A DNA stretch of 64,000 bases, taken from an uncultured Thermoleophilia bacterium. Lineage in GTDB: Bacteria; Actinomycetota; Thermoleophilia; UBA2241. Under the pieces are notes generated by a model. It made no database searches. It was given only the letters and a program-made list of their open reading frames with translations, and had not been told where the DNA came from. This document shows positions 516-64,000 of this stretch, one piece after another. Position numbers and translations under genes: made by a program. The DNA is taken from positions 343,729 through 407,728 of the forward strand of contig CAVPIV010000003.1 of NCBI GenBank assembly GCA_963705085.1. Reading direction: 5' to 3'. Positions within the stretch are counted from its first letter, which is position 1. Every line of letters begins with the position of its first letter.

Positions 516-1502
516 TCACAGGGCTGTGGCCAGCTCGGCGGCCTGTGGGGCGGCGGGCGCCTCGAGCCCCGCGCGCCGCGCTTCATCGCGGGCTATGGCG
601 AGGAGTTCCCGACACGAGCGGACCGCCGGGAAAGATGCGGCGCCGATCGCCAGGGTCTGCCGGCGCCCGGCGATGAGGCTGTCTGCGACGTCACGCGCCG
701 CCGCGGAGGCGAGGTCGCGCGCCTCGGCGATCGATCGTCCCGGCAGGACGAGCACGAAGGCATCGGGAGGCAGACGGAACGCCAGGTCGGCGCCGGAGAG
801 TCCGTGCTGCAGGCGCCTCGCCACGCCCTTGACCAGCGCCTCGCTCTTGCGAGCGCCGAGGAGTGAGCGGCTGTCGTCATAGTGCTGGAGACGAAGGTAG
901 ACGATGCTGAGCGGCGCACCGTCGGCGGCAGCGAGCTCCATGCGTACCCGGGCGATCTCCGGCAACCTGTGCGCCGCGTAGAAGCCCGTGGCGGCGTCGA
1001 TGCTCGCCGGACGCATGCGGCGGCTGCGCTGGAGGGTCAGGCGGTGCGCCGTGACCACGCCCCCGCCGACGAGGAGCACAACGATCGCGGCGCCTGCGAG
1101 CCTGTTGCCGCCCAGGCTCGGATCGGCGATGGCCAGCACGACGAGCAGCACGAGTGCCGGAGTGAGCAGATACGGCCACTCGTGCCGCGGCGAGACGCCG
1201 AGATGTCCGGCGGCGAGCAGGGGCACAGCCACGAGCAGCCAGCTGTGGACGCCGCCCGCTAGGGCCAGGGCACAGCCGAGGAGGAGCCAGTCGAGGACGA
1301 CAAACGTGTGGGCCAGGCGATGGCCCCGGAAGCGGGCCACCCCGATTGAGAGGAGCGCGACCGCCAGACCGATCACGGCGGGCGCCGCCGCCGCCGGACG
1401 CCCGATCGCACAGGCGGCCAAGGCGAGGAGAAGGAAGAGGAGTGTCCGGAAGCGGCTGCGCAACAGAGCCGGGTCCGGCGGTCTGCGCGGTGATTCTCTC
1501 AA
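516..1502 (-). CDS. Membrane-anchored GGDEF-domain protein with degenerate active-site motif (PPDAF in place of GG[DE]EF)
   Basis: 328 aa; N-terminal part holds about 5 hydrophobic helices. C-terminal GGDEF fold signatures: DAATGFYAAHRLPE, SIVYLRLQHYDD, and GADLAFRLPPDAFVLVLPG where the GGDEF motif should be. Confidence 0.7.
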   Translation of the reverse strand: MRESPRRPPDPALLRSRFRTLLFLLLALAACAIGRPAAAAPAVIGLAVALLSIGVARFRGHRLAHTFVVLDWLLLGCALALAGGVHSWLLVAVPLLAAGHLGVSPRHEWPYLLTPALVLLVVLAIADPSLGGNRLAGAAIVVLLVGGGVVTAHRLTLQRSRRMRPASIDAATGFYAAHRLPEIARVRMELAAADGAPLSIVYLRLQHYDDSRSLLGARKSEALVKGVARRLQHGLSGADLAFRLPPDAFVLVLPGRSIAEARDLASAAARDVADSLIAGRRQTLAIGAASFPAVRSCRELLAIARDEARRAGLEAPAAPQAAELATAL

Positions 1503-1640
1503 GCGGACGCCGCCGCGAGGGTGATAGGTTCTGGCAGGGCATGGTGCATGCGAACGGGTTTCTGCCAGCGGCCATGATCTCCTGCATCGCGCTCCTGCTG
1601 TGACGGCGCCGTCGGCGAGGTGGCCGCCCGAGCCCCGGTC

Positions 1641-1646
1641 GCTATA
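1641..1646 (+). promoter_or_regulatory. Candidate -10 hexamer TATAAT 10 nt upstream of the iorA GTG (leaderless or very short leader)
   Basis: gctTATAATgggaccccGTG; no convincing -35 element. Confidence 0.3.
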
Positions 1647-1656
1647 ATGGGACCCC

Positions 1657-3453: not shown

Positions 3454-4043
3454 GCGATGTGACGACCGTCTCCCTGGTCGGCGTCGGAGGGCAGGGCATT
3501 CTTCTCGCGGCCGCCGTGCTCGCCGAGACGGCCGCCGCCGAGGGTTTCGACGTCAAAGCGAGCGAGGTCAAGGGAATGTCGCAGCGCGGCGGCAGCGTCC
3601 TCAGCTCGGTGCGGTTTGGCGACCACGTGTGGTCGCCCGTGTCGCGCCACGCCGACGTGGTGATCGGCATCGAGCTCCTGGAGGGCCGCAGGGGACTCGA
3701 CCTGCTCGAGCCGAACGGGACGCTCGTCTGTGCGGTGACGACACGAATCGCTCCCGGGAGCGTTCTGCGTCGCGAGGCCGCGTATCCGGACGACCTGACC
3801 GAGGCCGCGACGGCCCGCGGCGTTCGCCTCATCGCCGTCGAGGCCACCGAGCTGGCGCGGCAGGCGGGCGCCGACCGCGCCGCCAACGTGGTTCTGCTCG
3901 GCGCGGCAAGCAACGTTCTCCCGTTCAGCGAAGCCTCCTGGCTGCGCGGGCTGTCCGCCGCCGTTCCTGCCAGGATTCTGGAAGTCAACCAGCGGGCGTT
4001 CGCCCTGGGGCGTGCTGTTGGCAGCGAGGAGGTCAAGCCGTGA
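3450..4043 (+). CDS. iorB: Indolepyruvate:ferredoxin oxidoreductase beta subunit
   Basis: 197 aa; VSLVGVGGQGILLAA (PFOR gamma-like domain). ATGA-type overlap with iorA. Confidence 0.88.
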   Translation: MSDVTTVSLVGVGGQGILLAAAVLAETAAAEGFDVKASEVKGMSQRGGSVLSSVRFGDHVWSPVSRHADVVIGIELLEGRRGLDLLEPNGTLVCAVTTRIAPGSVLRREAAYPDDLTEAATARGVRLIAVEATELARQAGADRAANVVLLGAASNVLPFSEASWLRGLSAAVPARILEVNQRAFALGRAVGSEEVKP

Positions 4044-48431: not shown

Positions 48432-49889
48432 TTAGAGTACTTCCGAGAGGAGCCGGGCCGCCTGATTGCGGAAGCGCCGCAGGCGGCCCATCCCCCGGAT
48501 GTCGTCGAGCGTGATCTCCCGGCAGTGCTCGAGATCGACGAGGAACGAGTCCCGGACCTGCTGCGCGAACATCTTGTCGAAGACCCAGAGCATGAGCTCC
48601 TTGTGCAGTTTGAGGCTGCGGTTGTCCATGTTCATCGTGCCGACCGCGGCGAGGTTCCCGTCGACGACGATCGTCTTGGGGTGGAAGAAGCCGGCCGTGT
48701 AGAGGTGAACGTGGGCGCCGGCCTCGATGAGCCTGCGGAAGTAGGTGTGCGCCGCCCAGAACGGCATCCGTCTGTCGGCCACTCCAGTCATCATCAGGCG
48801 CACCTCGATACCGGAGAGGGCGGCGTTGATGAGCTCGTCGTAGATGCTGTAGTCGGGAACGAAGTAGGGCGACTGGATGAAGACGGCGCGCTCGGCCTGG
48901 GCGATGGCCACGAGGTGGGCGCGGCGCGCCATGTCCCAGTAGTCCTCGACGCCTTGTGAGGCGATCTCGACGAGGATCCCCTCTTCGATGCAGCAGGCGT
49001 CGGGGGCCGGCATGTACCGCGCGTCGAACACACTCTCGGGCAGGCGGCTGTACTCGTACCAGCGTGAGGCGAACAGCTTCTGGAGGTCGGCGACGGCCTG
49101 CCCGGTGATGCGCACGTGGCTGTCGCGCCACGTGGCGAACCGCGGGCCGCCGTCGATGTACTCCTGGCCCATGTTCATGCCGCCGGTGTAGCCCACCTCG
49201 CCGTCGATGACGGCGATCTTGCGGTGGTTGCGGTAGTTGGCGCGCAGGACGTCGGCCAGGTCGGCGTGGACGTGGGCTCCGGCGCCGGCGAGCCGCTTCA
49301 GCTCGCGCTTGCCGAATCTGATGGAGCCGATCCAGTCGTAGGTGATGCGGACCTCGACGCCGGCCTTCAGGCGCTCATGGAGGATGGCCGTGATCTCGGC
49401 CGTGAGCTCGTCCTGCTCCCAGATGAAGTACTGCAAGTGGATGAACCGGCGGGCATTGCGAAGGTCCCTCTTGAGGCTGGCGAACTTGTCGGCGCCGGTC
49501 ACGAACAGCTCGATGGAGCTGGCCGGGAGGACCTGGGCGACCTCCTTGGCGCTGATGGCGCGCTGCACCTTGTCGGCGGTCGTTCCGCGCCACTCGCGCC
49601 GGAAGCGTTCTGCGGCGGGCCGGTTGCGCTCGTACAGAGGCGCCATTCCCTCGACTCGCTGGGCGTGGAGCGCCTGCGTCCACCCTTTGCGCTTGGCGAC
49701 CACTCGCCAGTCCCGGCCCATGAGTATGTAGAGCAGCACGCCCAGGAACGGCAAGAAGATGAGGACGAGCAGCCAGGCGAGGGTGAGCGACGGCTCGCGT
49801 TCGTCGCCGATCATCAGCACGATCAGGACCATCAAGTAGACGACGAACGCGATGAGGAAGAAGTAGGCGGAGATGTGCATGGTGAACAT
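48432..49889 (-). CDS. cls: Cardiolipin synthase
   Basis: 485 aa; 2 N-terminal TM; two HKD motifs (HRKIAVIDGEVGYTGGMN..., HPKTIVVDG...GTMNMD). Confidence 0.88.
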   Translation of the reverse strand: MFTMHISAYFFLIAFVVYLMVLIVLMIGDEREPSLTLAWLLVLIFLPFLGVLLYILMGRDWRVVAKRKGWTQALHAQRVEGMAPLYERNRPAAERFRREWRGTTADKVQRAISAKEVAQVLPASSIELFVTGADKFASLKRDLRNARRFIHLQYFIWEQDELTAEITAILHERLKAGVEVRITYDWIGSIRFGKRELKRLAGAGAHVHADLADVLRANYRNHRKIAVIDGEVGYTGGMNMGQEYIDGGPRFATWRDSHVRITGQAVADLQKLFASRWYEYSRLPESVFDARYMPAPDACCIEEGILVEIASQGVEDYWDMARRAHLVAIAQAERAVFIQSPYFVPDYSIYDELINAALSGIEVRLMMTGVADRRMPFWAAHTYFRRLIEAGAHVHLYTAGFFHPKTIVVDGNLAAVGTMNMDNRSLKLHKELMLWVFDKMFAQQVRDSFLVDLEHCREITLDDIRGMGRLRRFRNQAARLLSEVL

Positions 49890-50343: not shown

Positions 50344-52606
50344 GTGAAACGACGGCGCGATCGGAGGTATCCCGTGAACCTGTCGGCGCGGCATCTGACG
50401 GCCCTGTTCGTCGTCTGCGTACTGGGCACGGTACTGCTCATGGCCCCGGCCGCGAGTGCGTCGGGCACGCTCAACGAGACGCCGGACGAAGGCATGCCCT
50501 ACATCAACGGGCCGGTCAGAGCGATCGCCATCGGCCCCGACGGCACCACCTACATCGGCGGGTCCTTCACCTACATCGGTCCCGAGACGGGCGCGGGAGT
50601 GGTCGTCGACCCGGTCACCGCGCGCAGGTACACGCGCTTCGCGCAGGTCACACCCGACTCCGGCGGGGGCGTCTCGACCGTCATCTCCGACGGTCACGGC
50701 GGCTTCTACTTCGCCGGGTCGTTCTACATAGGCGGGCAGTGGCGTGTTCTTGCGCACCTGCGCGCGGACGGATCGATAGATGCCGGTTTCCGCCCGCGCG
50801 TGTACGACGTGAGCTGCCTCGCTCTCTCCGGCAACACCCTCTTCGTCGGCGGGCACTTCACCTCGGTCGACGGCCGCGCCCGCTACCACCTGGTGGCGCT
50901 CGACGCGGCCACCGGGGGAGTGAAGAGGTGGAATGCGCACCTGAACGGGGGAAGGGTCAGCTGCCTCGCCCTCTCCGGCAGGACCCTCTTCGTCGGCGGC
51001 TCCTTCAACGCCTCCATCGGCGGCCGATCTCGCCGGGCCCTCGCCGCCTTTGATGTGGGTACGGGGCGCCTGCTTCCGTGGGACGCAGCGCTCGCGGCGG
51101 GCTCCGACGTGCGCACGCTCGCCGTGTCCGGCTCGAGGCTCTACGTCGGGGGGGCCTCCTCGACCACAAATGCCCATCCACTCCTCATGGCGACGGACGT
51201 CCGCAGCGGGGCCACGCTCGACTGGGATCCGTTCGGGGAATCCGGCCGAACGCAGTTCGGCACGGTGGAGACCATGGCGGTGTCCGATTCCACGGTCTAC
51301 GTCGGTGGCTCCTTCACCTCGATCGGCGGTCAGGCGCGGGGCAGTCTCGCCGCCGTCGACGCGAGCACCGGGCTCGTCACTCCCTGGGATCCGAGCGCAC
51401 TGGCCCGTATCGAGTCCCTCGTCGTCCTCGGGCGGACGCGTGTACGTGGCCGGCTCCTTCGACTCGATCGGGGGGCAGGCCCGGAACGGCGCCGCCGCGC
51501 TGGACGCGACCACCGGCCTGGCCACGGCGTGGGATGTCGGCGACCCCATGTCGACCTGGCTGCACCGTCCCCCATACGATTCCACGTACGCCGGGGACGG
51601 GTATGTCTACGTCGTCGCCCGATCGGACTCGAGGATCTACGTAGGGGGCAGCTTTGCGTTCATCTGCGGCAGCAGGCGGAGCAACCTCGCGGCCATCGGT
51701 TCGGACGGGAGCCTTGCCGACTGGAATCCCTCGGCCGGCCGGGGCGTGCGCGCGCTCGCCGTCTCCGGCCAAACCGTCTACGCGGGCGGGACCTTCCGCC
51801 ATGTGGCCGGGCAGCGGCGCGACTACATCGCCGCATTGGACGCGGTCAGCGGCCAGCCGCTTCCGTGGAACCCTCGAGCCGATGACGCGGTGAATGCGCT
51901 CGCCGTCTCTGGGTCCACGGTCTATGCCGGCGGCCTCTTCACGAGGATCGGTGGCAGCCGGCGCGACTTCCTCGCGGCACTCGGCGCCGACGGGGCGGCG
52001 ACGTCGTGGAACCCGGGGGCGGTCAGCACAGCGGCTCGCTCGGAACGCGGCGTCCGCGCCCTGGCCGTGTCGTCGACCTGCGTCTACGCCGGCGGCGCGT
52101 TCACGGCGCTGGGCGGCGAGCGGCGCAACAACATCGCGGCGATCGACGCGGCAAGCGGCTTGGCGACCGCCTGGAACCCCGGGGCCGACAAGGTCGTCTG
52201 GGCGCTCGCCCTGTCCGGATCGAGGCTCTACGTCGGCGGCTCGTTCGCCCGACTCGGCGGCAAGGCTCGCAGCCGGCTCGGCGTTGTGGACGTCGACCGA
52301 GGGACGACGCTGCCCTGGAATCCACGCGCCGGCGGGTCTGAGGCGGATGTGCGCTCCCTCGCCGTCCTCGACCAAACGCTCTACGCGGGTGGGTGGTTCA
52401 CCTCGATGGGAGGCTGCCGTCGGGTTCACCTGGCCGCAGTGAGCGCCGGCAGCGGCGTCGTCACGCCGTGGCGGACGTCGTGGGCCATCGGGCGCATCGA
52501 CGCCCTCGCGGTGAGCGGCGGCGGCCTGTGGGCGGGCGAGACCCTGCGGACCGGGGCGTCCAACCCCAAGCCGTACCTGGCACGGTTCTCCCAGGCCGGT
52601 CCATGA
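50344..52606 (+). CDS. Secreted delta-60-repeat (DUF5122-like beta-propeller) protein; one apparent 1-nt frameshift near 51430
   Basis: Signal peptide LTALFVVCVLGTVLLMAPAASA. About 14 repeats of about 45 aa ([VL]YVGGSFTSIGGQAR..LAA[VL]DA.TG....W[ND]P). The reading frame changes at ctcGGGcgg (extra G). Confidence 0.7.
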
Positions 52607-52662
52607 CCTGGCCCTGATTCGATCTGCCCCGTCGGCAGCCATTCCGCAAACCAGATGCCCCC

Positions 52663-52863
52663 TTGCTCGACAGGCTCAGACGGGCCCGTGCGGATCAACT
52701 TGTGATCGTCGACCAGATTGAAAGTGAGCAGGCGCTGGTTGATGGCAACAGGGATGTCATCTCTCGCTTCGAGAAGAAGTTACAGGCCAGTTTGAGTCGC
52801 ATCTGGGATGGGAGCCAGGCAACCCTCGGCTCCGATGGCCAAGACGAACCGCACGGGACATGA
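52663..52863 (+). pseudogene. Possible type I R-M specificity subunit (HsdS) C-terminal fragment, lower GC
   Basis: 66 aa; LDRLRRARADQLVIVDQIESEQALVDGNRDVISRFEKKLQASL (coiled-coil-like). About 50% GC; flanked by a QP[FI]R[KN]PD-encoding direct repeat. Confidence 0.3.
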
Positions 52864-52973
52864 CTTAGACGGGGCTGACGACTCCTGGATCTTCACAGTC
52901 TCTACGACGGTCCGCAGCCAATCCGCAACCCAGATACCCGTGCCTTGATGGGTCCGGCGGGTCTCCCTGAGTT

Positions 52974-53027
52974 CGCGCGGTGTACTGAACCCCCTCGTGG
53001 TCCGCTAGCTCAGTTGAGAAGGCCGCC
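52974..53027 (+). repeat. Degenerate copy of the tRNA-Ala 5' half plus about 25 bp of upstream flank (direct repeat of 54706..54760)
   Basis: gcgcggtGtactgaACcccctcgtggTccgctagctcagttgAgaAGgCccgcc vs gcgcggtAtactgaGTcccctcgtggGccgctagctcagttgGgaGAgCGccgcc. Confidence 0.7.
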
Positions 53028-54448
53028 TAGAGACGGGTGAAGCACCGGGGTGCGCTCTGCCCGACGACCGTCGCCACCGTCACCTTGACTTGCCCTTTGG
53101 CTGTGCCGCTGGGGACCCTCACCTTGATCTTGAAGGAGTCCCAGCTGAGGTAGTCGGTCACGGTCTTGCCGCCGAACTGGACGACGCCTCCTGGCCGAAG
53201 CGCCTTCCCGTCAGCGTGACGACGTCGCCGACGCGGCCCTGCGCGGGCGACACGCCGGTCAGCCGGGCAAGACGCCCGTTCATCCACACACTCAGGCTCC
53301 TGGTCTCCACGTCCGTCGTCGCCAGGTCCGGCCTACGGTCGCCATTGAGGTCGGCCACGATCACCTCCCCGGGGAGTCGGCCCGCGAGGAACGACGTCGG
53401 TTCCAGGAACACGCCGTCGTAGCATATGGCTGAGCATGATGTAGATGCGCGGCGGCCCCGGCGGCACGGTCACCCAGTGCCCGTTGGAGCCGGTCATGTA
53501 GCCCGGCCTATAGCCAGTCGTGACCACGTCGGCGCGACCGTCCTGGTTCAGTTCGCCGACGGCGAGTCCCGAGGCGCTCAAGTTGCGGCTGAACATCGTC
53601 CTGCAGGTAGGGACGAGGATGCCCATGCCGTCGCCGAGGAACGCGTTGACGTCAGCGTCGCCCTCCAGATGGCCGGCGGTGACGAGGTCCGGCCGGCGGT
53701 CGCCGTTCAGGTCGCACAGCGCTAGATCGCCGGGCTCGAGGACCGTGCCGTACGAGGCGAGAGGGGAGAAGCCTCCCGCGCCGTCCCCGAGCAGCACTCC
53801 GAAACCGGAGTACTCCTCCCATGAGTTCCTCGTGAACGCGAGGTCGAGTGTGCCGTCGAGATCGAGATCGCCGGCGACGATGCGCCGGCAACCTTCTCCG
53901 ACGGCCAGGTGCAGTGGGGAGAGGAGACCGCCCGCGCCGTCGCCTGCGAGGATGCTCAGGCCGTCGCCGTCCGCCGTTGCCACATCGGGGACACCGTCGC
54001 CGGTGAGATCCCCGACCGCGACGTCGCTCGGGGTCGCTCCCGTCGGGAAGGTGCCCTTGAGCACGAAGGCGCCGCTGCCGTCACCCAGCAGGACGCTGAC
54101 GGTGCCGTCGCCGCTCGCCGTGACGACGTCCACCGTGCCGTCGCGATCGAAGTCCGTCAGGACGATGGCCCCGGGCCGGTGCTCCAGGGGGATACGGGTC
54201 GCCGGCGCGAAGCGACCCAGCCCGCGGCCGAGGAGGATGTCTACTCCGCGGCCTGCGCTCGCGACGATATCCGGCAGGCCGTCCCCGTTGAGATCTGCGG
54301 TCGCCAGGTCGGCGGGCCTCCCCCCCAGCCCGTAGTGTACGGGCGGGGCGAAGGAGAGCGCGGCGGCGGGTGCGGCCAAGGCCAGGGGCAGCGCGGAGAC
54401 GAGGCAGACGCCCACGACGAGCCACAGCAGGAACCTCTGCGTGCGCAT
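53027..54448 (-). pseudogene. Secreted FG-GAP/VCBS-repeat protein with C-terminal IPT/TIG-like domain; about 2 frameshifts
   Basis: Start MRTQRFLLWLVVGVCLVSALPLALAAP (signal peptide) at 54448, GGAAGGTGA RBS. FG-GAP repeats (DLNGDGLPDIV, DFDRDGTVDVV, DLTGDGVPDVA, DLDLDGTLDLA, DLNGDRRPDLV). C-terminal segments continue in two other frames (VADLNGDRRPDLATTD...; VQFGGKTVTDYLSWDSFKIKVRVPSGTAKGQVKVTV). Confidence 0.6.
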
Positions 54449-54730
54449 CGCATCACCTTCCCGCTCCGCGACCGGAAGAACACGGACTCCAGACGAGCCG
54501 CCTGTCGTGCCGCCTACCGAGAGCATACCCCCTGACTCCTTCGCACGGTCGTTGTCCGCTCTGGTGAACAGCTCTGAGCACGTGTCCGGGGCGTGTTGCC
54601 TGGGCCGTGACGCCCAGCCGTCATGCACCAGATTGCATGCTACTGACGGAGTCGGGCTCGCGCACCGGTAGCTTTGACCGGCCCCCATTCATTGGTTCAC
54701 CACCGCGCGCGGTATACTGAGTCCCCTCGT

Positions 54731-54806
54731 GGGCCGCTAGCTCAGTTGGGAGAGCGCCGCCTTTGCACGGCGGAGGTCAGGGGTTCGACTCCCCTGCGGT
54801 CCACCA
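54731..54806 (+). tRNA. tRNA-Ala (anticodon UGC), G3:U70, CCA encoded
   Basis: GGGCCGCTAGCTCAGTTGGGAGAGCGCCGCCTTTGCACGGCGGAGGTCAGGGGTTCGACTCCCCTGCGGTCCACCA; canonical cloverleaf; anticodon loop CTTTGCA. Confidence 0.9.
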
Positions 54807-54904
54807 GCCTCTTCTACGCTCAGATGCAGGGGTTTTGCGTGCCGTGAGAGCCGCGACGAAGCCCTCGAAATGGCCTCGTGCAAACACACGGCTAACGAAC
54901 GGGG
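54767..54904 (+). repeat. Direct repeat copy 1: tRNA-Ala 3' half (from anticodon stem) plus about 98 bp downstream
   Basis: Matches 60491..60625 at about 85-90% identity (cggcggaggtcaggggttcgactCccctgcggtccaccagcctctTctacGctcagatgcaggg...gccctcgaaatgg...ggctaacgaacggg). Confidence 0.8.
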
Positions 54905-55091
54905 TGTCACGCGGAGGGACTCCCCGGCACTACGGTCGGCGCGGCGGCCTCGCTGTGCCTACCGGCGTCACCGTGTTGCGGGCTCGTGATTCGACGATGG
55001 CGCTGACGGACACTACCGGTTCACAACTCTCGCGCAGGGCAACTGCCCTCTTTCGGACAATGAGCCAGCGGCAGTGGTCTGAAATACGCGC

Positions 55092-56204
55092 CTACTGTCC
55101 GCCGTGGAGATGGTGCGCGAAGTAGGTCTCTTCGAAGGACCCGGGCTCCTCGTAGTGCTCGACGACCTCGTCCCCCTGATAGCGGTCCAGCCTGACAGGG
55201 CCTGAGAAGCGAAGGTATCCGCCCGGATACCTGATCATCTCGGCGACCAGCTTCTTCACCCCTGACGTGAAGTCGATGAGTGTCTGACTGACGAGCGTGC
55301 GCTCACGCGTGAAGGACAGGACGTAGCGCGTGTCCCCGTCGCGGTACTCGAAGCGCAGGGTATCGGGGACGGGCTTGCCGGTGTGCTCGTCAGTCTCGCT
55401 CTCGCTCTTGGCGAAGGTCACCTTGGTGCCATCGTCCGCGATCACCTTGCCGTCGCGGGCGAGCATGTACCAGGGGATCGTGGTGAAGCCGTACTTCTTC
55501 GCGGCCGTGATGTAGGCCGCGACGAACGAGTAGGGACCCACGCGCCCTCGTCCCCAATACCAGTGGTCGATCAGGTGCGCCATGTCGCAGTAGGCCCGGT
55601 TGACCCAGTTGTGGTCGTGATACCCCATGCCCGTGCTCTCGTGGACCTCGGAGCCGATCCGGTAGGTCGCCGTCACCTTGCCCATGGGTACCGCCACCAG
55701 CCAGGCGAGGAACTCCTCCCCCTCAGCGCCGAAGACGAGGTGCCCCGTCTCCGGGCGCCACGGCTCCGTGGTCGCCTCGAGGCGGACCTCGGCCGAGACG
55801 TCTTCGGCCGCGGCCGTGATGTGATACTCGTGCAGGTCGCCGACGAAACGGTACTCCCCGATGCGCGTGTCGCAGCCGTCCGCGGCGGCCTCGAACTCGT
55901 CGGCCTTGAACTTGCCGTACTTCATCAGTCTGCGCCCGTCGGGCAGGTCCAGGTCGATCTCGATGAGCGGCTCCAGGGGCTGCTTGGAGCTGGAGCCGTC
56001 CTTGGTGCAGAAGATGATGGCCAGTTTGGCGCCGTCGTCCAGCAGCGAGTCGAAGTACCACCACTCCTCGCTCGGCGGGGCGGGATCGAGACGCAGGCCA
56101 TCCTCTCGCTGCTGGATATCACCCTTGGCTATCTTGAAGCGCGCGTAGTCCTCGGGGCGGATAGCCAGGCGGGCCGGTTCGGCGTGGTCGTGAGCGGGGT
56201 GCAT
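55092..56204 (-). CDS. AttH/CrtC-like (hydroxyneurosporene synthase / lipocalin-like hydratase family) protein
   Basis: Start taken at MHPAHDHAEP (longer ORF to 56252 possible). WWYFDSLLDDGAKLAIIF, GYHDHNWVNRAY, WYWGRGRVGPYSFV. Family assignment is from motif memory only. Confidence 0.45.
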   Translation of the reverse strand: MHPAHDHAEPARLAIRPEDYARFKIAKGDIQQREDGLRLDPAPPSEEWWYFDSLLDDGAKLAIIFCTKDGSSSKQPLEPLIEIDLDLPDGRRLMKYGKFKADEFEAAADGCDTRIGEYRFVGDLHEYHITAAAEDVSAEVRLEATTEPWRPETGHLVFGAEGEEFLAWLVAVPMGKVTATYRIGSEVHESTGMGYHDHNWVNRAYCDMAHLIDHWYWGRGRVGPYSFVAAYITAAKKYGFTTIPWYMLARDGKVIADDGTKVTFAKSESETDEHTGKPVPDTLRFEYRDGDTRYVLSFTRERTLVSQTLIDFTSGVKKLVAEMIRYPGGYLRFSGPVRLDRYQGDEVVEHYEEPGSFEETYFAHHLHGGQ

Positions 56205-56978
56205 GGTCCTCCTCCTTCTCCTGCATCGCAGGTTCGATTTCAGCCGGGGCAATCAGTCCTCTGCTGCTCAGGGCGACTTTCGTGACCTGGCGCTCACAGG
56301 CCCGAGTTTCCGCAGCCAGTGTGAGCCCGGCGCCGATCTATTCGCGCAGGCGTGCTGCTTGGTCTTGATCTTGAGCAGGTCGAGCGACTCGAGCCATCGG
56401 ATGCCAGGCGACGGGAGGTGACGTGCTCAGCCCTCAGCGCGCTGCCGTGCACGGACATGGCGAATATCATGACCCCTCCGAAGGCCGCCGGTCACCATTC
56501 TTCCCACGGCGGTGCGAGTCGAAATGCGCCTCCGTTGGTCGGCAGGCTACGCTCACGCGGTCGCCGAGGGTGCGCGACAGCGCTCCGCCGGTGGCGGATC
56601 GACCTGGGCCGTAGGCCGACCGGCCTTCGTACCTCCCAGCCGACGCGATGCCGACGAGACGCCTCATCCGGCGTGATACGGCCGGGCACAGCCCAGCAGG
56701 GTGGGCGCGCGAAACCTCGGAGGACGCAGCACTTTCGCGCACGCGGGACTACGCCGCGTTACGCCTAGTATCCGACTGGATTGGGTCCGCCCGAGAGCCC
56801 AATCCCCTCCGTCACCCCTCAGGTGATAGCGTCACATCTAGCGATTGGCCCGTACGGGGACAGTCCGAGGATGGAGGGCTGGTGTTCGCCTTCATGGGCG
56901 AGCGGGTGGGGCAATGTGCTCACCTCGCAGGCGCTGCGCCGGACGCTCTCGACCCGCGTCGACAGAGAGGAGTGAACC

Positions 56979-57695
56979 GTGGAACGTCCAGGCGAGGCTC
57001 ACGGCTGGAGGTTCACGCGCAGGGCGGAGCACCACGCGGGCACACTGACCGTCGGCTGCATCGCCGGGATGTGCTTCGCGGTCCTGTTCGGCCTCTGCGC
57101 GGTCCTCGTCCGCAGCAGCGTTGGGAGTGCTTCGGACACCACTGGGGCGTGGCTGGCCGAGAGCCGGCGGCAGGTTGAGATCGCCCTCGCCCTCCTCCCC
57201 TTCGCGGGGATCTTCTTCCTCTGGTTCATCGCCGTGTCCCGGCAGCGCCTCGGGCGCTACGAGGACCGCTTCATCTCGACGCTCGTCCTCGGCAGCGGGC
57301 TGCTGTTCCTCGGGATGGTCTTCGTCGCCGCCGCCCTCGGCGCGGCGATCCTGACCGCCTACTCGAATTCGGCCTCCTTCGCCGGCAGCGAAACCTACAT
57401 GTTTATCACGCTCGCGTTCTCGCAGTTGTTCGGCGTGTACGCGCTGCGCATGGCGGCGGTATTCCTCATCTGCCAGGCGACGGCGTGGCTGCGGCACGGG
57501 CTCATGCCCAAATGGCTGGCTTTGCCGACCTACGTCGTCGCCCTGGTGCTCCTGTTCGTCGTGGGCGTTCAGGCGTGGGCAATCCTGATCTTCCCCGCCT
57601 GGGTCTTCCTCGTGAGTGCCTACCTGCTCGTGGTCAGCGGCCGTGGCGGGGTCGACGAGGCGGGGGGCCCGGAGGCCGTGGGTCCCGACGCCTGA
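56979..57695 (+). CDS. Hypothetical polytopic membrane protein
   Basis: 238 aa, about 6 TM; no recognisable family. Confidence 0.45.
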   Translation: MERPGEAHGWRFTRRAEHHAGTLTVGCIAGMCFAVLFGLCAVLVRSSVGSASDTTGAWLAESRRQVEIALALLPFAGIFFLWFIAVSRQRLGRYEDRFISTLVLGSGLLFLGMVFVAAALGAAILTAYSNSASFAGSETYMFITLAFSQLFGVYALRMAAVFLICQATAWLRHGLMPKWLALPTYVVALVLLFVVGVQAWAILIFPAWVFLVSAYLLVVSGRGGVDEAGGPEAVGPDA

Positions 57696-58201
57696 CGGCC
57701 CTGCGCGGTCTAAGCCGGCGGGGTGTTCGCCTCGCGGTCGAGAACGTGTTACAGGTGACCTGGCCTGTCCGGGCGTCGCACCCCGCCGTATTGCACCAAC
57801 TGCAAGATCAACAACAGGGTCTACCGTCACAGCACAGCCGGCGATGAACTCAGGCTGCGGATCCATGAATCGCGGAATCCGGGGAATCTCGAACGCAATC
57901 CGATCGTCTCGCTGCGCCCATCTTGGAACACCCAGATTCCTTGGTGGGGAGCCTCTCCCGGCAAACAACGGCGTCAAGCCGGACGGCGCGCCCCCGAGAG
58001 CTAGAATCGAAGAGCAACGGCGGGCGAAGGCGCGGCGCCGCGCACGCCGAACAACGTTAGATGCATCACGCCTCACGGCGGGAGATCGCACTTGGGGCCC
58101 TCATACGCGCATCGCGAACGAAGCAGGGACCCCGATCCTCCAGCCCCTTTGTCAAGCTTGCCAGTGGGACCCTTCGACCTTGTCATTGAAAGGAGCAACC
58201 C

Positions 58202-58897
58202 ATGAACGAGCCTAGTTTGGCGGACAGGACCTTTCACATCATTATGAGGCGCATGGTGGAGACCGGTCAGGCTCCCCACTTCACTGAGATAGCAGCTGAC
58301 TTAGGTGTATCCATGGAGGAAGGGCGGCAGGCGCTTCATGCATTGATAGGTATAGGTCTAGGGGGCTGGCTATATCCTGGGACGGATCTCATTGTCTCCA
58401 TGGCACCTTTTCACAGTTTACCGAATCAGTATCGTATCACCATTGATGGTCAACAGAAGTGGTTTGCCCAATGAGCTTTCGAATCGCCAGCAGTCTGCTG
58501 GCTCTTTCCAGGTAAAACCGTCCATCTTGAAGCGCCCTGTCTCGATTGTGGCCAACCGATCCGCGTGGATTTCAAGGACGGGGAAGTTCTGAACAGTGAT
58601 CCCGAGGGACTGATTGGGCATGTGTCTGTTCCCCTTCGCCAATGGGCAGAGAATGTCACCTTCACCTGAAGTACCATGCACTTCTTCCGGTCGGAAGAAC
58701 ATCTGCGGAACTGGGCTGGTTTTGAGGCGGAAAACGAGGGCGGAATCATTTCCCTCTCTGATCTTGTCAAGTTGACTGCTATTGATCACTTCCGAAAGCG
58801 ATTGGAACCTGACTACATTTCGAGCTACTTTGGGGTTGGAGAGGTCATGAAGAGGTTGCAGGAGATCGGCAAGACAGATCCTTATTGGTTGCTCTAG
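58202..58897 (+). CDS. merB: Organomercurial lyase (MerB)-like protein with two in-frame UGA codons at the catalytic Cys positions (candidate selenoprotein, Sec at 58472-58474 and 58667-58669)
   Basis: AAAGGAG RBS 7 nt before ATG 58202. One continuous frame reads MNEPSL...YRITIDGQQKWFAQ[UGA]AFESPAVCWLFPGKTVHLEAPCLDCGQPIRV...ENVTFT[UGA]STMHFFRSEEHLRNWAGFE...DPYWLL. It aligns to MerB ...FEIDDRRLYAW-C96-ALD99...GRTARVSSHCAATGAPV...SFC-C159-HVHFFAS. Each UGA is followed at +12 by a 7-bp hairpin with a GUCU/GGUC loop. Local GC is about 50%. Confidence 0.6.
58486..58502 (+). promoter_or_regulatory. Candidate bacterial SECIS hairpin 1 (11 nt after the UGA at 58472-58474)
   Basis: GCCAGCA-GUC-UGCUGGC; conserved G and U in the apical loop about 20 nt from the UGA; resembles the fdhF apical stem-loop (UGCAG-GUCU-GCA). 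Confidence 0.5.
58682..58699 (+). promoter_or_regulatory. Candidate bacterial SECIS hairpin 2 (12 nt after the UGA at 58667-58669)
   Basis: UUCUUCC-GGUC-GGAAGAA: perfect 7-bp stem with a GGUC apical loop. Confidence 0.55.
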
Positions 58898-59161
58898 CCC
58901 GGATGTGATCTATCACGTGGTTTCAGTGGCCGTTCGCTGGTCCGGACCAGAGGATCCAATAAGCGCCTCAACCTGACGCGCACAAGATGGGCGGTTGACT
59001 GATAGGGAAGTGGGCCGGCACCGTCTACGCGGTGGCTACTGTGTCCACTCCGCCCGTCGATTCCGAGGTCAACTATGGGTTGAGCCAGCGTACTCACCAG
59101 CGGGCAGCCACCATTCGGATGGACACCCAAGAGCGGACGTCGCATGAAAGGAGCAGGGGCC

Positions 59162-59536
59162 ATGCACAGCAACTTGGAAGGTGTCCCCGTGGTGTTTCAG
59201 GCCGGCTCTTCATACGGCCGCCAAGTCGAATGGGGGGACATGGACGGGGGTTTTTGGGCTTTTCCGGCAGGGTTCGACAGCACGCCGCTCTTCGAGGGGT
59301 TGCCCTTTGGGTGCGAGTGTCCGCATTGGGGCTACTTGCTCAAGGGCAAAATGCGGGTGAAGTACGCCGATCACGAGGAGGTGATCGCGGCAGGGGAGGC
59401 CTACTACCTGGAGCCGGGTCACCTGCCGGTGATGGAAGAGGACTGCGAGATGGTCGAGTTCAGCCCCAAGTACGAGAGTCGGAGGATGCTCGAGTTCGCA
59501 GGTCGCGGCATGCCGTCGATGAGCCGGGTATCCTGA
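59162..59536 (+). CDS. Cupin-domain protein
   Basis: AAGGAG RBS; GYLLKGKMRVKYADHEEVIAAGEAYYLEPGH (cupin motifs). Confidence 0.55.
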   Translation: MHSNLEGVPVVFQAGSSYGRQVEWGDMDGGFWAFPAGFDSTPLFEGLPFGCECPHWGYLLKGKMRVKYADHEEVIAAGEAYYLEPGHLPVMEEDCEMVEFSPKYESRRMLEFAGRGMPSMSRVS

Positions 59537-59731
59537 ACACTCGCCGTCAAGGTGTGGGTCCACGTTGCCCACTGCCGGTCAAAGGGGGACGCGTCCGGTG
59601 CGCGGGCGCGTACGGCGCGCGGGGGCAGGCCAAGAAAGGCTACGCCGGGTTGCTGCTGGAAGAGCCCAACGCCAGCTTCACCACGTTCGATGCGCCCGCC
59701 GCCTGACGAGGTGTGACCCCAGGAGTCGTCC

Positions 59732-60373
59732 ATGGGAGTGATGGAGTACATGGCGGGCCAGCTGAGGAGGCCCTCGGGCCTCGTCGGCCGGCACGTTACT
59801 TCGAGGCTCCTGAACAGAGCCAACGTCGGGGTCAACCAGCTGACGCTGGCGTCGCTGGACCTCGAACCCGACGATCGGGTGATCGAGGTGGGGTTCGGCG
59901 CCGGCGACCTCATCGGTCGCCTCGCATCGGTTGTCGTCGAGGGCTCCGTCACAGGGATCGACTTCTCAGGTGACATGGTCGAGCTCTGCGCGAAGCGCTT
60001 CGCCTCGCTGGTTCGATCAGGGCGCGTCGACCTGCTGTGTGCGAGGGCGGAGCGCCTGCCCTGCGCCGCCGAGAGCTTCACCAGGGCCTGCACGGTCAAC
60101 ACGATCTACTTCTGGCGTGATCCGGCCGTTCCCCTGCGCGAGCTCAGGCGCGTGCTGCGCGCGGACGGCAGTCTGGCTGTCGGTTTCAGTCCCCGAGCCG
60201 TCATGCAGAAGCTGCCGGTCACGCGGCACGGCTTCACGCTCTACGAGCCGAACGAGATCGGCCGTCTGCTCGAGGCGGCCGGGTTCGGCGATGTCGAGAT
60301 CCTCCCCGGTCCCGACCCACGTGCGGAGTTCCTCTGCGCGGTTGGCACGAAGCACGGTGGGGGTGCCGTCTAG
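59732..60373 (+). CDS. Class I SAM-dependent methyltransferase
   Basis: AGGAG RBS; VIEVGFGAGDLIGRLA...TVNTIYFW... Confidence 0.7.
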   Translation: MGVMEYMAGQLRRPSGLVGRHVTSRLLNRANVGVNQLTLASLDLEPDDRVIEVGFGAGDLIGRLASVVVEGSVTGIDFSGDMVELCAKRFASLVRSGRVDLLCARAERLPCAAESFTRACTVNTIYFWRDPAVPLRELRRVLRADGSLAVGFSPRAVMQKLPVTRHGFTLYEPNEIGRLLEAAGFGDVEILPGPDPRAEFLCAVGTKHGGGAV

Positions 60374-60490
60374 CCAGGGGATCGAGCCGACTCGCGGAAC
60401 GGGTGTTGCCCAACTGCGGTCTTGCCCTCGCCACCCGGCAACGCCGGACACCTGGCTGACACGAAGCAGCAGCACAGGCGACGCGCGGGC

Positions 60491-60625
60491 ACGGCGGAGG
60501 TCAGGGGTTCGACTGCCCTGCGGTCCACCAGCCTCTCTACTCTCAGATGCAGGGATCTTCTGCGCTCTCGGAGCCGCTCAGGAGCCCTCGAAATGGTCTT
60601 CGGCAAACATCCGGCTAACGAACGG
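60491..60625 (+). repeat. Direct repeat copy 2 of the tRNA-Ala 3' half plus downstream flank (candidate attR of the island)
   Basis: acggcggaggtcaggggttcgactGccctgcggtccaccagcctctCtacTctcagatgcaggg...; ends about ggctaacgaacggg. Confidence 0.8.
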
Positions 60626-61094
60626 GTCGTTAGCTGGCAGCACTCGGCGGCACGTGGCATCACTAGTCGGCACTGCGGGGCCCATAGTCTCGCATGGCCG
60701 GAGGGCCTTCTTCACGCGCTCTCGCTACTCCCGAAGGGCGACTTGCTTTGTGCCTCGTCGAGTGCGACGGAGAAACCTCCGTGGCCGCGGAGACCGTGCT
60801 GCAGCCAGATCCGCGCGTCGTCGGGGGACAGGCCGGGACGCGTCGGGACCAAACGGGACTACTGTGCCGTCCAGCGGGTACGCCAACCTCATGCGAGACT
60901 CCTGAGATGAGCGACGCTCGAGACGGGAGACTGTGATCCGCCGGACGTACCAGACCAGGTCCCCGCATGGTTCGCTGTGCTAGCTCTTGGCATTGTCGGA
61001 TGCCACGCGTCTGATGGAGGGGAGGTCGTGTTTCAAGCATGAGTTTCAAGGCACGAAGGTAGCACGAGGATAGGTTTGTTAGGGGGGTTTCTCA

Positions 61095-61940
61095 ATGAGA
61101 AGGCGCATGATCGTTTGCGTCGTCGTGGCGATGATGGCCGTGCTGGGGTCTGGGCTGTTCGCCGGCTCAGCACTGGCAGGCCCGTCACCCATGACGATCG
61201 CCAAAGACATCCTTGGCCACGCTCCACGCGGGCTCGCCAAGACCGTCGTGCAAAGCGGGAAGATCCGCGTCGCGAACGACCTCAACTACCCTCCCCAGAG
61301 CTATGTCGACCCGAAGACCCACAAGCTCGTCGGCTTCGATGTCGACGTGGCCAAGAAGGTCGCTCGGATCCTCGGCCTGACCGTCGTGTGGAAGCACCCG
61401 GCGTGGGCGAACGTCATCTCCGGCCTGCGCCACGGTCGGTACGACGTCTCCATCGGTTCGATGAGTGTATCGCCCGAGCGCAAGAAGCTGGTTGCCTTCA
61501 CCGGCCCATACTACTTCGATGAGGGCCAAGTATTCGTGAAGTCGGGCGGCACTCAGATCACCGGTCCCGCCGACCTGGCCGGCAAGACGGTCGGGGTCGG
61601 CGCCGGCACCACGTACAGCGATTACCTGAACAAGAATACCCAAGCGATCGTGGAGACCTACGACAGCGACCTTGCTGCGCTGCCGGACCTCCTCAACGGC
61701 ACCATCGACTTCTGGATGACGAACCCCGTCACCGGCCAGATAGCCATCCTCGAGGGCAAGGCGCTGGAGTTCTCGGGCAAGCCCCTCTACTACGAGGATA
61801 TTGCCTTCGCCCTGAAGAAGGGCGAGAGCGACTGGCGGGCGCTCTTGAACTACACCGTGAAGCAGATGCACAAGGACGGCTCGCTGACCGCCATGTCGAA
61901 GAAGTGGTACAGCGGCCTGGACCTGACCGTCAAGCAGTAG
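61095..61940 (+). CDS. Polar amino acid ABC transporter substrate-binding protein (SBP_bac_3 family)
   Basis: Signal peptide; KIRVANDLNYPPQSYVD...LVGFDVDVAKKVARILG...GRYDVSIGSMSVSPERKK. Confidence 0.75.
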   Translation: MRRRMIVCVVVAMMAVLGSGLFAGSALAGPSPMTIAKDILGHAPRGLAKTVVQSGKIRVANDLNYPPQSYVDPKTHKLVGFDVDVAKKVARILGLTVVWKHPAWANVISGLRHGRYDVSIGSMSVSPERKKLVAFTGPYYFDEGQVFVKSGGTQITGPADLAGKTVGVGAGTTYSDYLNKNTQAIVETYDSDLAALPDLLNGTIDFWMTNPVTGQIAILEGKALEFSGKPLYYEDIAFALKKGESDWRALLNYTVKQMHKDGSLTAMSKKWYSGLDLTVKQ

Positions 61941-62396
61941 TTGGACTCCGCTCAACCCGGGTGAGACTGGACAAGTCGGGTGCCTTCAAGTGGGCCACGC
62001 GTAGGGTGTCAGAGTTCTTGGGCACTTGGCCGCGAAAGAGGTGTGGACTTGCGCGGTGGCCGGGCCCGGGCCAGTCGCCTCGCACAGAGACCCGCCACCC
62101 GTGAGGGCAGCGGGGCCTCCACGACATCCCCTTGGCCGCCGGCTCCCGAGGGTCCCGGACGCTCGTGTAGTCGCTTCCGCGTACTACGAAGAGCTGTCGA
62201 TCCCGGGAGCGTGTCCCGGGCCTCCTGCCGGGAGTCTTCACCTCGACGCGCTGAAGGCCTGCTGATCTGCTGCAGCAGCATGGATCTGTTCGAGAGGGCC
62301 TCATGTGAACGGGGGCGACCATCCGCCGCCTTGAGCGCTTGTCCCAGCAAGGCGGGATGGTCGCCCCCGTACCAGGGCACGGGCCTTGGCACGAAC

Positions 62397-62849
62397 CTAG
62401 GCGTGTGCGGCGGCAGGAGTAGGGGCGCCTGTCGGCGGGGCCGCCAGTCTGAGCTGGAAGAGCGCACCGAGACGGTCCGGGATCCCCCAGTGTTCGACTA
62501 GACGGTCGTCCTCGAAGCGGAGAGCGTCGAAGACGTCGATACGCATCGGGTGGCCAGTCGGTGGATGACCCATGAAGAAACCGTCATTGGTGCCGGTGCC
62601 GGTCATGCGCAGCCAGACGGTGTCGCCGTTGACGGTGATGTCGTCGATGGTGAGATGGAAGTCGGAGAAGGCGCGCCGTAGCGAGGAGATGATCGCTTTG
62701 AGGCCCTCCGCTCCGGGAGCGTGGTCGGGTCCGAAGTTCTGGTGTTCGACCATGCTGGGAGAGGTGAGATCGTCGACGACGTTCAGGTCGCCCTCGTTGA
62801 AGCCTTCCTCGATCAAACGGCGGGCGAGCACTTCTGGGCTAGATGACAT
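62397..62849 (-). CDS. SnoaL-like / ester cyclase-family protein
   Basis: Start MSSSPEVLARRLIEEGFNEGDLNVVDDL...; NTF2-like fold signature. Confidence 0.55.
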   Translation of the reverse strand: MSSSPEVLARRLIEEGFNEGDLNVVDDLTSPSMVEHQNFGPDHAPGAEGLKAIISSLRRAFSDFHLTIDDITVNGDTVWLRMTGTGTNDGFFMGHPPTGHPMRIDVFDALRFEDDRLVEHWGIPDRLGALFQLRLAAPPTGAPTPAAAHA

Positions 62850-62898
62850 GGTGTCCTCCATTTGAATACTGTTTGACTTTACTGGATACTGTGTTAGT

Positions 62899-63546
62899 AT
62901 GCCCAATATGTCGAGAAGCGAACATGCACGTCGCCGGTATCGCTCCGAGCTCCGGCGCGGTCAGGCAGAGCAGACGCGAGCGCTGGTGCTCTATGCGGCC
63001 GCGACCCTCTTCGAGGAGCGCGGCTACCAGGGCACGAGCATCGCGGCGATCGCCGAGGAAGCTCACGTATCGGCCGAGACCGTCTACGCCCGCTTCGGCA
63101 ACAAGCGCGCCCTGCTCGGTGAACTCGTGCGCCTTGCGGTCCGCGGCCCGGATCACGCGCCTGTACCTGAGCAGCGGGTCCCGAAGGCGCTGGCGGCGGT
63201 GACCGACCAGCACGAGCAGCTCCGGCTCTTCGCCGCCGACGTAGTGCTCCGCCTCGAGCGGGCCGCGCCGCTCGTTGCGGTCGTCACCGGCGCCTCACGA
63301 TCCAACCCCGAGCTTGCGCAGCTTCTCACCACGCTTCATGCCGACCGACTGAAGAACCTCCGGACGCTCGTGGACGCCCTCGCCGCGAACGGGCCGCTCC
63401 GGCTTCAGGGCGACGACGCCGTCGACACAGTCTGGGCACTCACGAGTCCCGAGCTCCACCAGCTCCTCATCCGCATCCGGGGGTGGAGTCGCCGCCGCTA
63501 CCAAGATTGGCTTGCCTCGAGCTTGGCTGGACTTCTTCTGCCCTAG
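62899..63546 (+). CDS. TetR-family transcriptional regulator
   Basis: N-terminal HTH: TRALVLYAAATLFEERGYQGTSIAAIAEEAHVSAETVYARFGNKRAL. Divergent from the SnoaL-like gene. Confidence 0.8.
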   Translation: MPNMSRSEHARRRYRSELRRGQAEQTRALVLYAAATLFEERGYQGTSIAAIAEEAHVSAETVYARFGNKRALLGELVRLAVRGPDHAPVPEQRVPKALAAVTDQHEQLRLFAADVVLRLERAAPLVAVVTGASRSNPELAQLLTTLHADRLKNLRTLVDALAANGPLRLQGDDAVDTVWALTSPELHQLLIRIRGWSRRRYQDWLASSLAGLLLP

Positions 63547-64000
63547 ATCGCGCGTGCGACAGCCAATGGCACCTGAGATCAGGTCACCCTTTCTCGACGC
63601 GTATCAGCCACCGCATGAGCGGCTGCGCGTGCTGCCTTTCTTGGCTTCCCCTCAGTTCGTCGCGCCAGGTTCGGCGTCGACGCGCACGGCCCAGTCAGCC
63701 GCCCCCCGCCGGTGCTCGCCCGCAAAGTGCAGGCGGTGCGTGAACGGAGTTGACTGCCCGGGCGTGGCGTATACATCCACGCACTCCACGTGCACCTCGC
63801 CCGGCGTGTCCCCTATCACCAACTCGACGGGTTCGAAGCCGCACCGACAGCATGTTCGAACCGTACGCTAGGTACTCCACGCCCCTGGACCTCCCGAGTC
63901 CGCCGGGCGTTCGGCTGGCGAGCTGCCGGCGGACTGCGCCCGATGATTCATGGTGCCGCCGGGCCGATTGGCCTCAGCTGTGGTTGCGTCCAATCAGGCA

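Follow-up and report, generated by a model that had tools for sequence, protein, structure and literature searches.

This work describes the surroundings of the tRNA-Ala(UGC) gene in a 64,000-nt stretch of an uncultured Thermoleophilia genome, here termed the window, and the island of DNA that lies beside this gene. ARAGORN and Rfam agree that the gene is intact, as the original prediction made from this sequence had proposed, and partial copies of both its halves are found nearby in the same orientation (Table 1). Downstream, the gene is followed by a conserved arm, an island whose predicted content (AttH/CrtC-like, membrane protein, MerB-like, cupin and methyltransferase genes) was borne out with Pfam, a displaced 3' fragment of the tRNA, and a second copy of the arm. 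Upstream, an FG-GAP repeat gene on the opposite strand separates the intact gene from a displaced 5' fragment.

Table 1. Features of the tRNA-Ala(UGC) locus, in window coordinates.
Feature	Position	Strand	Remarks
Further upstream genes: PHP, HD, YgbA_NO, cls (cardiolipin synthase), Transgly_assoc	48432-49889 (cls)		Pfam
Beta-propeller repeat gene (DUF5122-type)	50344-52606	+	At least 9 repeats of ~48 amino acids (aa)
Debris 5' of the 5' fragment	52629-52950	+	HsdS-C-terminus-like peptide (~52680-52810) and two motif copies (52635-52670 and 52915-52950)
Displaced 5' fragment	52974-53028	+	Leader and -10 box 52974-52998; tRNA positions 1-32 at 52999-53028, with 2 substitutions and 2 deletions
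FG-GAP repeat gene	53333-54688	-	Fragments down to 53027; L003-homologous segment 53022-54508; Pfam
Promoter/leader of intact tRNA	54706-54730	+	TATACT -10-like box; kept in relatives; duplicated at 52974
Intact tRNA-Ala(UGC)	54731-54806	+	ARAGORN and Rfam; single copy placed
Putative integrase-less island remnant, resembling a cis-mobilisable element (CIME)	54807-60488		Between proximal arm start and displaced 3' fragment
Proximal conserved arm (P'-like)	54807-54935	+	GCAGGGGTTTT box; GCAAACACACGGCTAACGAACG box 54880-54901; phased heptamers
Proximal-arm heptamers GTCACGC/GGGACTC/GGCACTA	54906, 54916, 54926		
AttH/CrtC-like gene	55092-56252	-	Pfam AsqO/Diels-Alderase-like
Open reading frame (ORF) without family	56352-56768		
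238-aa membrane protein	56979-57695	+	No Pfam family
MerB-like gene	58202-58897	+	Two in-frame TGA codons
Cupin	59144-59536	+	Pfam
Class I methyltransferase	59732-60373	+	Pfam
Displaced 3' fragment, tRNA positions 35-76	60489-60530	+	One T-stem mismatch
Distal conserved arm	60531-60675	+	GCAAACATCCGGCTAACGAACG box 60603-60624; phased heptamers
Distal-arm heptamers AGCACTC/GGCACGT/ATCACTA/GGCACTG	60639, 60649, 60659, 60669		Through 60675
Right neighbours of island: SBP_bac_3, SnoaL, TetR			Pfam

Both repeats were established through repeat search and local alignment, and were backed by blastn. With tRNA positions numbered linearly over the 76-nt gene, such that the anticodon loop occupies positions 32-38 (54762-54768), the 3' repeat pairs 54765-54930 with 60489-60653 in direct orientation (blastn E ~3e-35), and consists of the 3' part of the tRNA plus ~125-160 nt of downstream sequence. 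The tRNA part matches at 41 of 42 positions, the sole mismatch disrupting a T-stem pair, and the flank part is ~80% identical with four small indels; homology between the distal flank and the flanks of relatives continues to ~60671. The 5' repeat pairs 54706-54762 with 52974-53028 at 89% identity, with two 1-nt deletions (blastn-short E 1.6e-8), and spans 25 nt of leader, including the TATACT box, and tRNA positions 1-32. Decay is unequal, amounting to ~5 changes in 32 nt of the 5' fragment versus one in 42 nt of the 3' fragment. Both breakpoints fall inside the 7-nt anticodon loop, with the 5' copy stopping at position 32 and the 3' copy beginning at position 35, and the loop is bordered by an inverted CCGCC/GGCGG stem with a 7-nt spacer. 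The distal 3' fragment is preceded by GACGC (60480-60484), matching the arms that stand 5' of such fragments at other loci, and its overlap sequence is mutated (CGGGCAC versus TTTGCAC). The anticodon loop is the probable crossover site, and represents a canonical sublocation within tRNA genes (tDNA), for which classes were reportedly set out by Williams in 2002; tyrosine integrases that target tRNA genes commonly cross over there. Hence the predicted degenerate copy of the 5' half, with ~25 bp of upstream flank, was upheld by alignment, and the attL/attR reading of the 3' repeat agrees with its direct orientation and its start in the anticodon loop. The repetition of the 3' half with ~98 bp of flank, originally placed at 60491-60625, was also recovered, although this flank is not plain host sequence, but a conserved arm module travelling with the 3' part of the tRNA.

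The variable DNA at this locus extends beyond the repeats. Relatives, all of them Thermoleophilia metagenome-assembled genomes (MAGs), were found by scanning genome contigs with cls, to which the best matches were in L039 (85%), L001 (80%) and L002 (79%). In six relatives, a tRNA-Ala(UGC) gene of the same orientation is situated at a distance of 0.5-4 kb from cls. DNA synteny with relatives spans ~39.8-49.9 kb and stops at cls in comparisons with L039, L001, L002, L045, L012 and L026, beyond which the tRNA unit alone aligns. When gene content was compared using blastp on ORFs filtered by GC content at third codon positions, the window shared no gene with any relative, either in the interval from cls to the tRNA or downstream of the tRNA, with the exception of the FG-GAP gene (L003). 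Therefore the repeats that were predicted to delimit the island exist, but they are not the limits of variable DNA, as synteny is missing on either side of the tRNA, over a stretch that begins at 49.9 kb and reaches at least 64.0 kb. As the relatives examined lack the island genes at the same locus, these genes are not ancestral, consistent with the expectation that they were acquired. Rather, the relatives display scars of their own. In L039, the intact tRNA is followed after 1.3 kb by a 3' fragment with flank, 1.6 kb further by another 3' fragment, and a further 2.5 kb on by a partial flank; in L001, a decayed 3' fragment lies 2.5 kb downstream of the tRNA, and is followed by unrelated DNA. 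These scars, and the differing gene content, mark the locus as a recurrent integration hot spot, and the three repeats in series in L039, along with the single one in L001, bear out the proposal of decayed or cargo-only DNA left by multiple sequential events.

What relatives do share is the immediate flanks of the gene: the 25 nt 5', and ~100-160 nt 3', of the tRNA are 70-86% conserved in L001, L002, L045 and L039, while their surroundings all differ. The downstream arm module comprises GCAAAC-N5-GCWAACGAACG, then three to five GNCACTN heptamers at a 10-bp phase, and is present in four genomes and 33 metagenome contigs, the latter having been fetched by a scan with the tRNA end and the GCAAAC box. 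Approximately 20 of these contigs carry the full tRNA and module, and a further 11 contain only a 3' fragment; all 11 fragment-only copies, as well as the fragments of L039 and L001, start at ..TTTGCACGG. Successive heptamers (G-N-[CG]-A-C-N) in the downstream module are spaced by exactly 10 nt on 29 occasions and by 20 nt on ten, relative to a mean of 0.4 in shuffled sequences. At other loci, the 3' fragments are themselves preceded by a conserved segment of ~150 nt, termed the P arm, which repeats a GCAAAC-N5-GCAAACGAACG box and pairs of GNCACTC heptamers, and the P arms of different loci are mutually similar (z 4-17). A second arm family (TGGTCACCA twice, GTCAATGC twice) stands 5' of fragments in L087, L095, L099 and L109. 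Phased heptamers and GCAAAC boxes occur on both sides of the core in L082, L093, L039 and L001, and on the P' side only in the window. Lambda-type attP sites have helically phased direct repeats flanking an inverted-repeat core, for a heterobivalent tyrosine integrase and a directionality factor; the attP arms of the actinobacterial element pSAM2 reportedly carry repeats of the GTCACGC type, which may resemble those of this arm. The conservation and phasing of the arm, in combination with the CCGCC/GGCGG core around a 7-nt spacer, would correspond to the architecture expected of such an attP. A structured non-coding RNA 3' of the tRNA was also considered, and was not supported: RNAalifold found no conserved structure across 32 aligned modules (-2.69 kcal/mol, with 0 compensatory pairs), and the tRNA was the only Rfam match. 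Given this absence of RNA covariation, the arm looks like putative binding DNA for a recombinase or excisionase.

Another possibility is that the repeats arose through segmental duplication or illegitimate recombination, or as a dispersed repeat or miniature inverted-repeat transposable element family. Processes of this kind could explain a 7-nt microhomology at the left junction, and an inversion within the island that has short repeats at its breakpoints. However, the 7-nt loop contains the breakpoints of both window fragments, as well as those of more than 15 independent fragments from other genomes. The two flank copies in the window are 80% alike, and no nearer to each other than to the copies of other species; being as diverged as copies between species, they cannot be the product of local duplication in situ. 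Furthermore, the flank motif GCWAAC-N5-GCWAACGMACG has no copies in the window beyond the two linked to the tRNA, meaning the repeats are not a dispersed family within it, and at all loci examined the motif lies beside tRNA-Ala only. Neither of the two conditions named as refuting the original prediction, ancestral gene content and a dispersed repeat family, was thus borne out. Hence an origin independent of site-specific recombination is largely refuted, and is to be considered very improbable.

No recombinase was detected in the window: all searches returned no integrase, excisionase, transposase or serine recombinase, in line with the original prediction. These searches employed Pfam on the ORFs and on six-frame translations of two gaps (52600-53035 and 56245-56985), a regular expression for tyrosine-recombinase motifs, and phmmer with XerD, Hin and three insertion sequence (IS) transposases against the six-frame window; divergent recombinases could escape detection. 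In relatives, Pfam on 137 neighbouring ORFs, together with the motif and phmmer searches, yielded IS transposases as the only recombinases (IS256, IS3 and IS630), and viral contigs contained no matches to either the tRNA end with arm, or the 3' half, providing no phage source. The simplest reading of the lack of recombinases around arm-bearing loci is pervasive decay, combined with short contigs. A different reading, in which a recombinase encoded elsewhere in the genome inserts and stacks an integrase-less family of Thermoleophilia cassettes, marked by the conserved arm and its phased heptamers, at the anticodon stem-loop of tRNA-Ala(UGC), would make this locus a trans-acting, integron-like platform for gene capture on a tRNA gene, instead of a graveyard of decayed self-integrating elements. 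It is distinctly unlikely. In contrast to an integron platform, no recombinase was found beside the tRNA at any locus, and the units end in tRNA fragments, not in attC sites.

The probable explanation of the locus is that it contains an integrase-less remnant between the proximal arm and the displaced 3' fragment, a second remnant starting at 60531, and the trace of a separate, probably older event that produced the 5' fragment, all at a recurrent target of tyrosine integrases. Under this reading, tRNA-Ala(UGC) would have been targeted repeatedly by tyrosine-integrase-type elements crossing over in the anticodon loop. On the right side, an element bearing the 3' part of the tRNA and the ~150-nt arm would have integrated, thereby regenerating the tRNA (attL, 54731-54935) and displacing what had been its 3' part to 60489-60530 (attR). 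The integrase and mobility genes of the element would then have been lost, its interior would have rearranged, and the loss of its recognisable right arm, together with mutation of the attR overlap, would have left an immobile, CIME-like remnant of cargo. The lack of a recombinase, the mutated attR overlap, the missing P arm and the rearranged interior are the reasons for regarding the island as probably a decayed cargo remnant that is now immobile. Its foreign origin is suggested by the 80% similarity of the flank copies, the GC dip to 0.53-0.57, and the match of the AttH-like and membrane gene pair to contigs of unrelated context. In turn, the arm at 60531-60675 would mark where an earlier resident of the locus, an element from the same family that runs past 64000, has its left end, making the locus a tandem accretion. 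Since the distal fragment is followed by a complete arm, and the DNA further right lacks synteny and has a low GC content, the sequence from 60531 onward is probably the left end of this older resident remnant, although the window ends at 64 kb.

The left side would stem from a separate event, probably an older one, across the crossover point. As a result, the old 5' half would be separated from the gene by 1.7 kb that comprises the FG-GAP gene, a new promoter and a new 5' half. The greater decay of the 5' fragment than of the 3' fragment is the basis for judging it probably both older and separate. The FG-GAP gene has 82% DNA identity to L003:2461-3949, relative to which it has frameshifts at ~53422 (+1) and ~53190 (-1). 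Pfam supported the FG-GAP identity of the predicted pseudogene, which has these two frameshifts, but the predicted IPT domain was not seen. L003 is a more distant relative (76.5% DNA and 68% aa identity in cls), in which the FG-GAP counterpart is upstream of cls in the same orientation, and the gene is not found in the closer relatives L039, L001 and L002. A recent transfer of the gene is unproven, as the gap between 82% for FG-GAP and 76.5% for cls is too small. The FG-GAP gene, on the opposite strand, ends in a stop codon (53027-53029) that adjoins the 5' tRNA fragment. Homology to L003 reaches 53022 and tRNA homology reaches 53028, so that the two overlap by 7 nt (GCCGCCT), made up of the anticodon stem's 5' strand and the first base of the loop. 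On the basis of this sequence, either integrase action on a pseudo-site or microhomology-mediated joining would be compatible with the left junction.

An alternative would unite the two sides in a single 7.5-kb insertion (53029-60488), which split the host tRNA without rebuilding it and brought a complete tRNA-Ala of its own as a replacement, leaving the 5' and distal 3' fragments as the halves of one old gene. This follows the logic of tRNA-dependent lysogeny, in which the host tRNA is split and a same-isotype tRNA is present in the inserted phage DNA, a mechanism documented in phages of Actinomycetota (Guerrero-Bustamante & Hatfull 2024, PMC10865867). The likeness is exact in its geometry, with an intact tRNA of the same isotype standing between a 5' piece and a 3' piece that together lack only positions 33-34. 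Moreover, L103 (oriented 1117-3913) provides a second example of a 5' fragment: its intact tRNA-Ala and arm are followed by a truncated P arm, the promoter and 5' half (2968-3026), and then, 838 nt beyond this 5' fragment, a P arm and 3' fragment (3730-3913), the T-arm variant of which differs from that of its intact gene. However, the right junction in the window has the standard form common to many loci, with a 3' fragment that runs from the loop onward after GACGC, and the intact tRNA bears the arm of the family, so ordinary tRNA-rebuilding integration suffices for the right side. Additionally, the unequal decay of the two fragments suggests different ages, the microhomology at the left junction is with a homologue of the L003 FG-GAP gene, and no phage or integrase genes are present in the window. 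A single insertion is therefore unlikely.

Several observations weigh against the recurrent-target explanation, or parts of it. Firstly, no integrase was found near any of the ~45 related loci, which is why we infer, rather than identify, a tyrosine integrase as the agent. Secondly, the 160 nt 5' of the distal fragment in the window lack significant similarity to P arms elsewhere, with GACGC alone matching. Thirdly, the shared sequence at the 5' junction is a microhomology of 7 nt located in the stem, not an identity in the loop, which illegitimate recombination would explain no less well than integrase action. Fourthly, the conservation of the GCAAAC box among metagenome matches is circular, the box being part of the search pattern, although neither the heptamer phasing nor the P arms depend on that pattern. 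Fifthly, errors in MAG assemblies are possible. Finally, the similarity of the arm roughly tracks host relatedness, and the more distant L026 retains its first ~40 nt, meaning the arm could be native chromosomal trailer DNA that elements copy.

This last point opens an alternative in which the ~150-nt module is vertically conserved DNA, acting as a tRNA trailer, terminator or regulatory region, of which elements carry a captured copy; the distal copy at 60531 would then be the true host flank, and the right side would hold one island only. The module indeed adjoins the intact tRNA in L001, L002, L045 and ~20 metagenome contigs, and is not succeeded there by conserved element genes. However, the terminal decayed 3' fragment of L001 borders unrelated DNA, and it is the intact tRNA that the arm adjoins. 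The same box and heptamers also occur 5' of fragments, as P arms, and the arm is missing from the L012 tRNA and from the proximal L039 copy. No RNA structure was detected, and beyond 60.7 kb, to the right, the DNA has a low GC content and no synteny with relatives. A native module hence appears rather unlikely; were it correct, the second remnant would drop out, and the main conclusion would stay.

Comparison with known systems places the recurrent-target explanation among well-described types of genomic island. The Islander principle describes the standard attL...attR layout, from the regenerated tRNA to the displaced fragment; of the 3919 tDNA islands in its statistics, 2083 have an anticodon-centred attP, 159 have 5' tDNA fragments, and 125 show tandem arrays (Hudson, Lau & Williams 2015, PMC4383910). 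The window shares with these islands this layout, at 54807-60488, an intact tDNA with cognate fragments in the same orientation (60489-60530, matching at 41 of 42 positions, and 52999-53028), crossover in the anticodon loop, tandem arrays, and the occasional 5' fragment. It differs in that 5' and 3' fragments both flank one gene, and in that the repeat extends ~125-160 nt past the tRNA end. Furthermore, Pfam, the motif expression and phmmer with XerD identified no tyrosine integrase inside the island or elsewhere in the 64 kb, so Islander would filter this locus out.

The island comes nearest to the concept of a CIME (summarised in PMC5704250 after Pavlovic 2004 and Bellanger 2011), and would have been produced by decay and tandem accretion. 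Like a CIME, the island is without integration or transfer genes, and is in tandem with other remnants at one target gene. Unlike a CIME, it has a mutated attR overlap and no recognisable P arm, although attL is intact; these two losses make its cis-mobilisation doubtful. Nor is a functional partner seen here, whether an integrative and conjugative element (ICE) or an integrative and mobilisable element, and the host is an uncultured member of the Thermoleophilia, not a Firmicute. The tandem ssrA islands of Dehalococcoides are similarly delimited as a series by direct repeats of the ssrA 3' end, with some lacking integration modules (PMC3146451), and resemble the present locus as a series of islands downstream of one small-RNA gene, some of them free of integration modules. 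However, these islands have a serine recombinase (DsiB) beside attL and a 20-bp repeat, whereas in the window the repeat is 42 nt of tRNA and a long arm, with no recombinase. The actinomycete ICEs pSAM2, SLP1 and pMEA300 integrate into tRNA genes with identity segments that reach the 3' end (PMC2440964), matching the Actinomycetota host and the tRNA-gene target with identity to its 3' end seen here, but their int, xis, rep, tra and kor modules are all absent from the window, the int-xis, replication and Tra domains having had no Pfam match in 52.6-64 kb. The locus also departs from tRNA-dependent lysogeny, in that no phage genes or integrase are found here, the right junction looks to be of the ordinary tRNA-rebuilding type, and the fragments are unequally decayed.

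The island interior is itself a composite. Its GC content (0.642 in 54905-60490) is below that of the upstream DNA (0.687) and the entire window (0.681), as predicted, yet most of this dip is accounted for by a trough at 57.75-59.25 kb (0.53-0.57), and GC is also low to the right of the island (0.649 in 60626-64000), meaning the depression is neither even across the island nor confined to it. Metagenome contigs L114-L116 (ENA) match the AttH-like gene at 92% identity and the 238-aa membrane gene at 89%, and in them these genes are adjacent and collinear, within an unrelated gene context and with no tRNA nearby. In comparison with these contigs, 55066-56237 of the window is inverted, and 695 nt (56238-56931) intervene before the segment at 56932-57697. 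Short GCNGCTG repeats mark the breakpoints of this internal inversion. No Pfam family matched the membrane ORF or two further ORFs.

The MerB-like ORF occupies the part of the island with the lowest GC. Its TGA codons (58472-58474 and 58667-58669) both fall at positions that we take to be those of the MerB catalytic residues Cys96 and Cys159, and when they are read as cysteine, the ORF matches PF03243 (E 8.7e-23). Each is followed, after 14-15 nt, by a perfect 7-bp hairpin (58486-58502 and 58682-58699), in a position that would resemble that of a bacterial selenocysteine insertion sequence. No tRNA-Sec was found in the 64-kb window. The context of this gene with two in-frame TGA codons is horizontally acquired, rearranged DNA.

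The architecture itself is textbook, as remnants of tRNA-targeted islands with tandem accretion are well known; what stands out is the conserved phased-repeat arm and the island cargo. The locus documents variable DNA piling up to the left and right of a single tRNA gene within an uncultured member of the actinobacterial class Thermoleophilia, in which, to our knowledge, no mobile elements have been characterised. The arm could help to find the cognate integrase or excisionase, and to map islands in Thermoleophilia MAGs.

Further debris precedes the 5' fragment. The motif GCAGCCAnTCCGCAAmCCAGAT is present in two direct copies (52629-52696 and 52909-52950), which flank the HsdS-C-terminus-like peptide and resemble the GCAACC repeats beside the L103 tRNA fragments (local alignment z ~4.5), such that they may be the arm of a third element family. 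The HsdS-like fragment that was originally proposed did not survive as an annotation, since six-frame translations of 52600-53035 had no Pfam match to support it, leaving a resemblance only. A third, highly decayed att remnant at ~52820-52950 was rejected, as its tRNA part aligned no better than shuffled sequences. The adjacent beta-propeller gene is represented by two long ORFs that overlap in different frames (50344-51885 and 51050-52606), which suggests a frameshift or an assembly error.

Among other loci, an apparent additional 5' fragment in L028 proved to be a chance 13-mer within a gene, and the interpretation of the L103 motifs as IS256 ends was unsupported, the ORF beyond them being a C-terminal fragment of a transposase only. 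IS transposases are found 0.2-2.5 kb from tRNA-Ala or its fragments in many relatives (IS256-like in L087, L091, L096, L103 and L026; IS3 in L002, L087 and L113; IS630 in L012), and no integrase was seen at these places. Some islands at this locus are little more than att arms: in L084, L089, L094 and L101, near-empty units consist of the tRNA and arm, ~570 nt, a P arm, and a vestigial core (CACGG...AGGTC). In L001, tRNA-Ala is separated from its fragment by a 2.5-kb unit that contains, on the minus strand at L001:4492-6220 and in the L002 equivalent, genes for a sigma-70-region-4/GerE-type helix-turn-helix protein and a Macro-HD fusion protein, and may be a remnant of phage or defence cargo.

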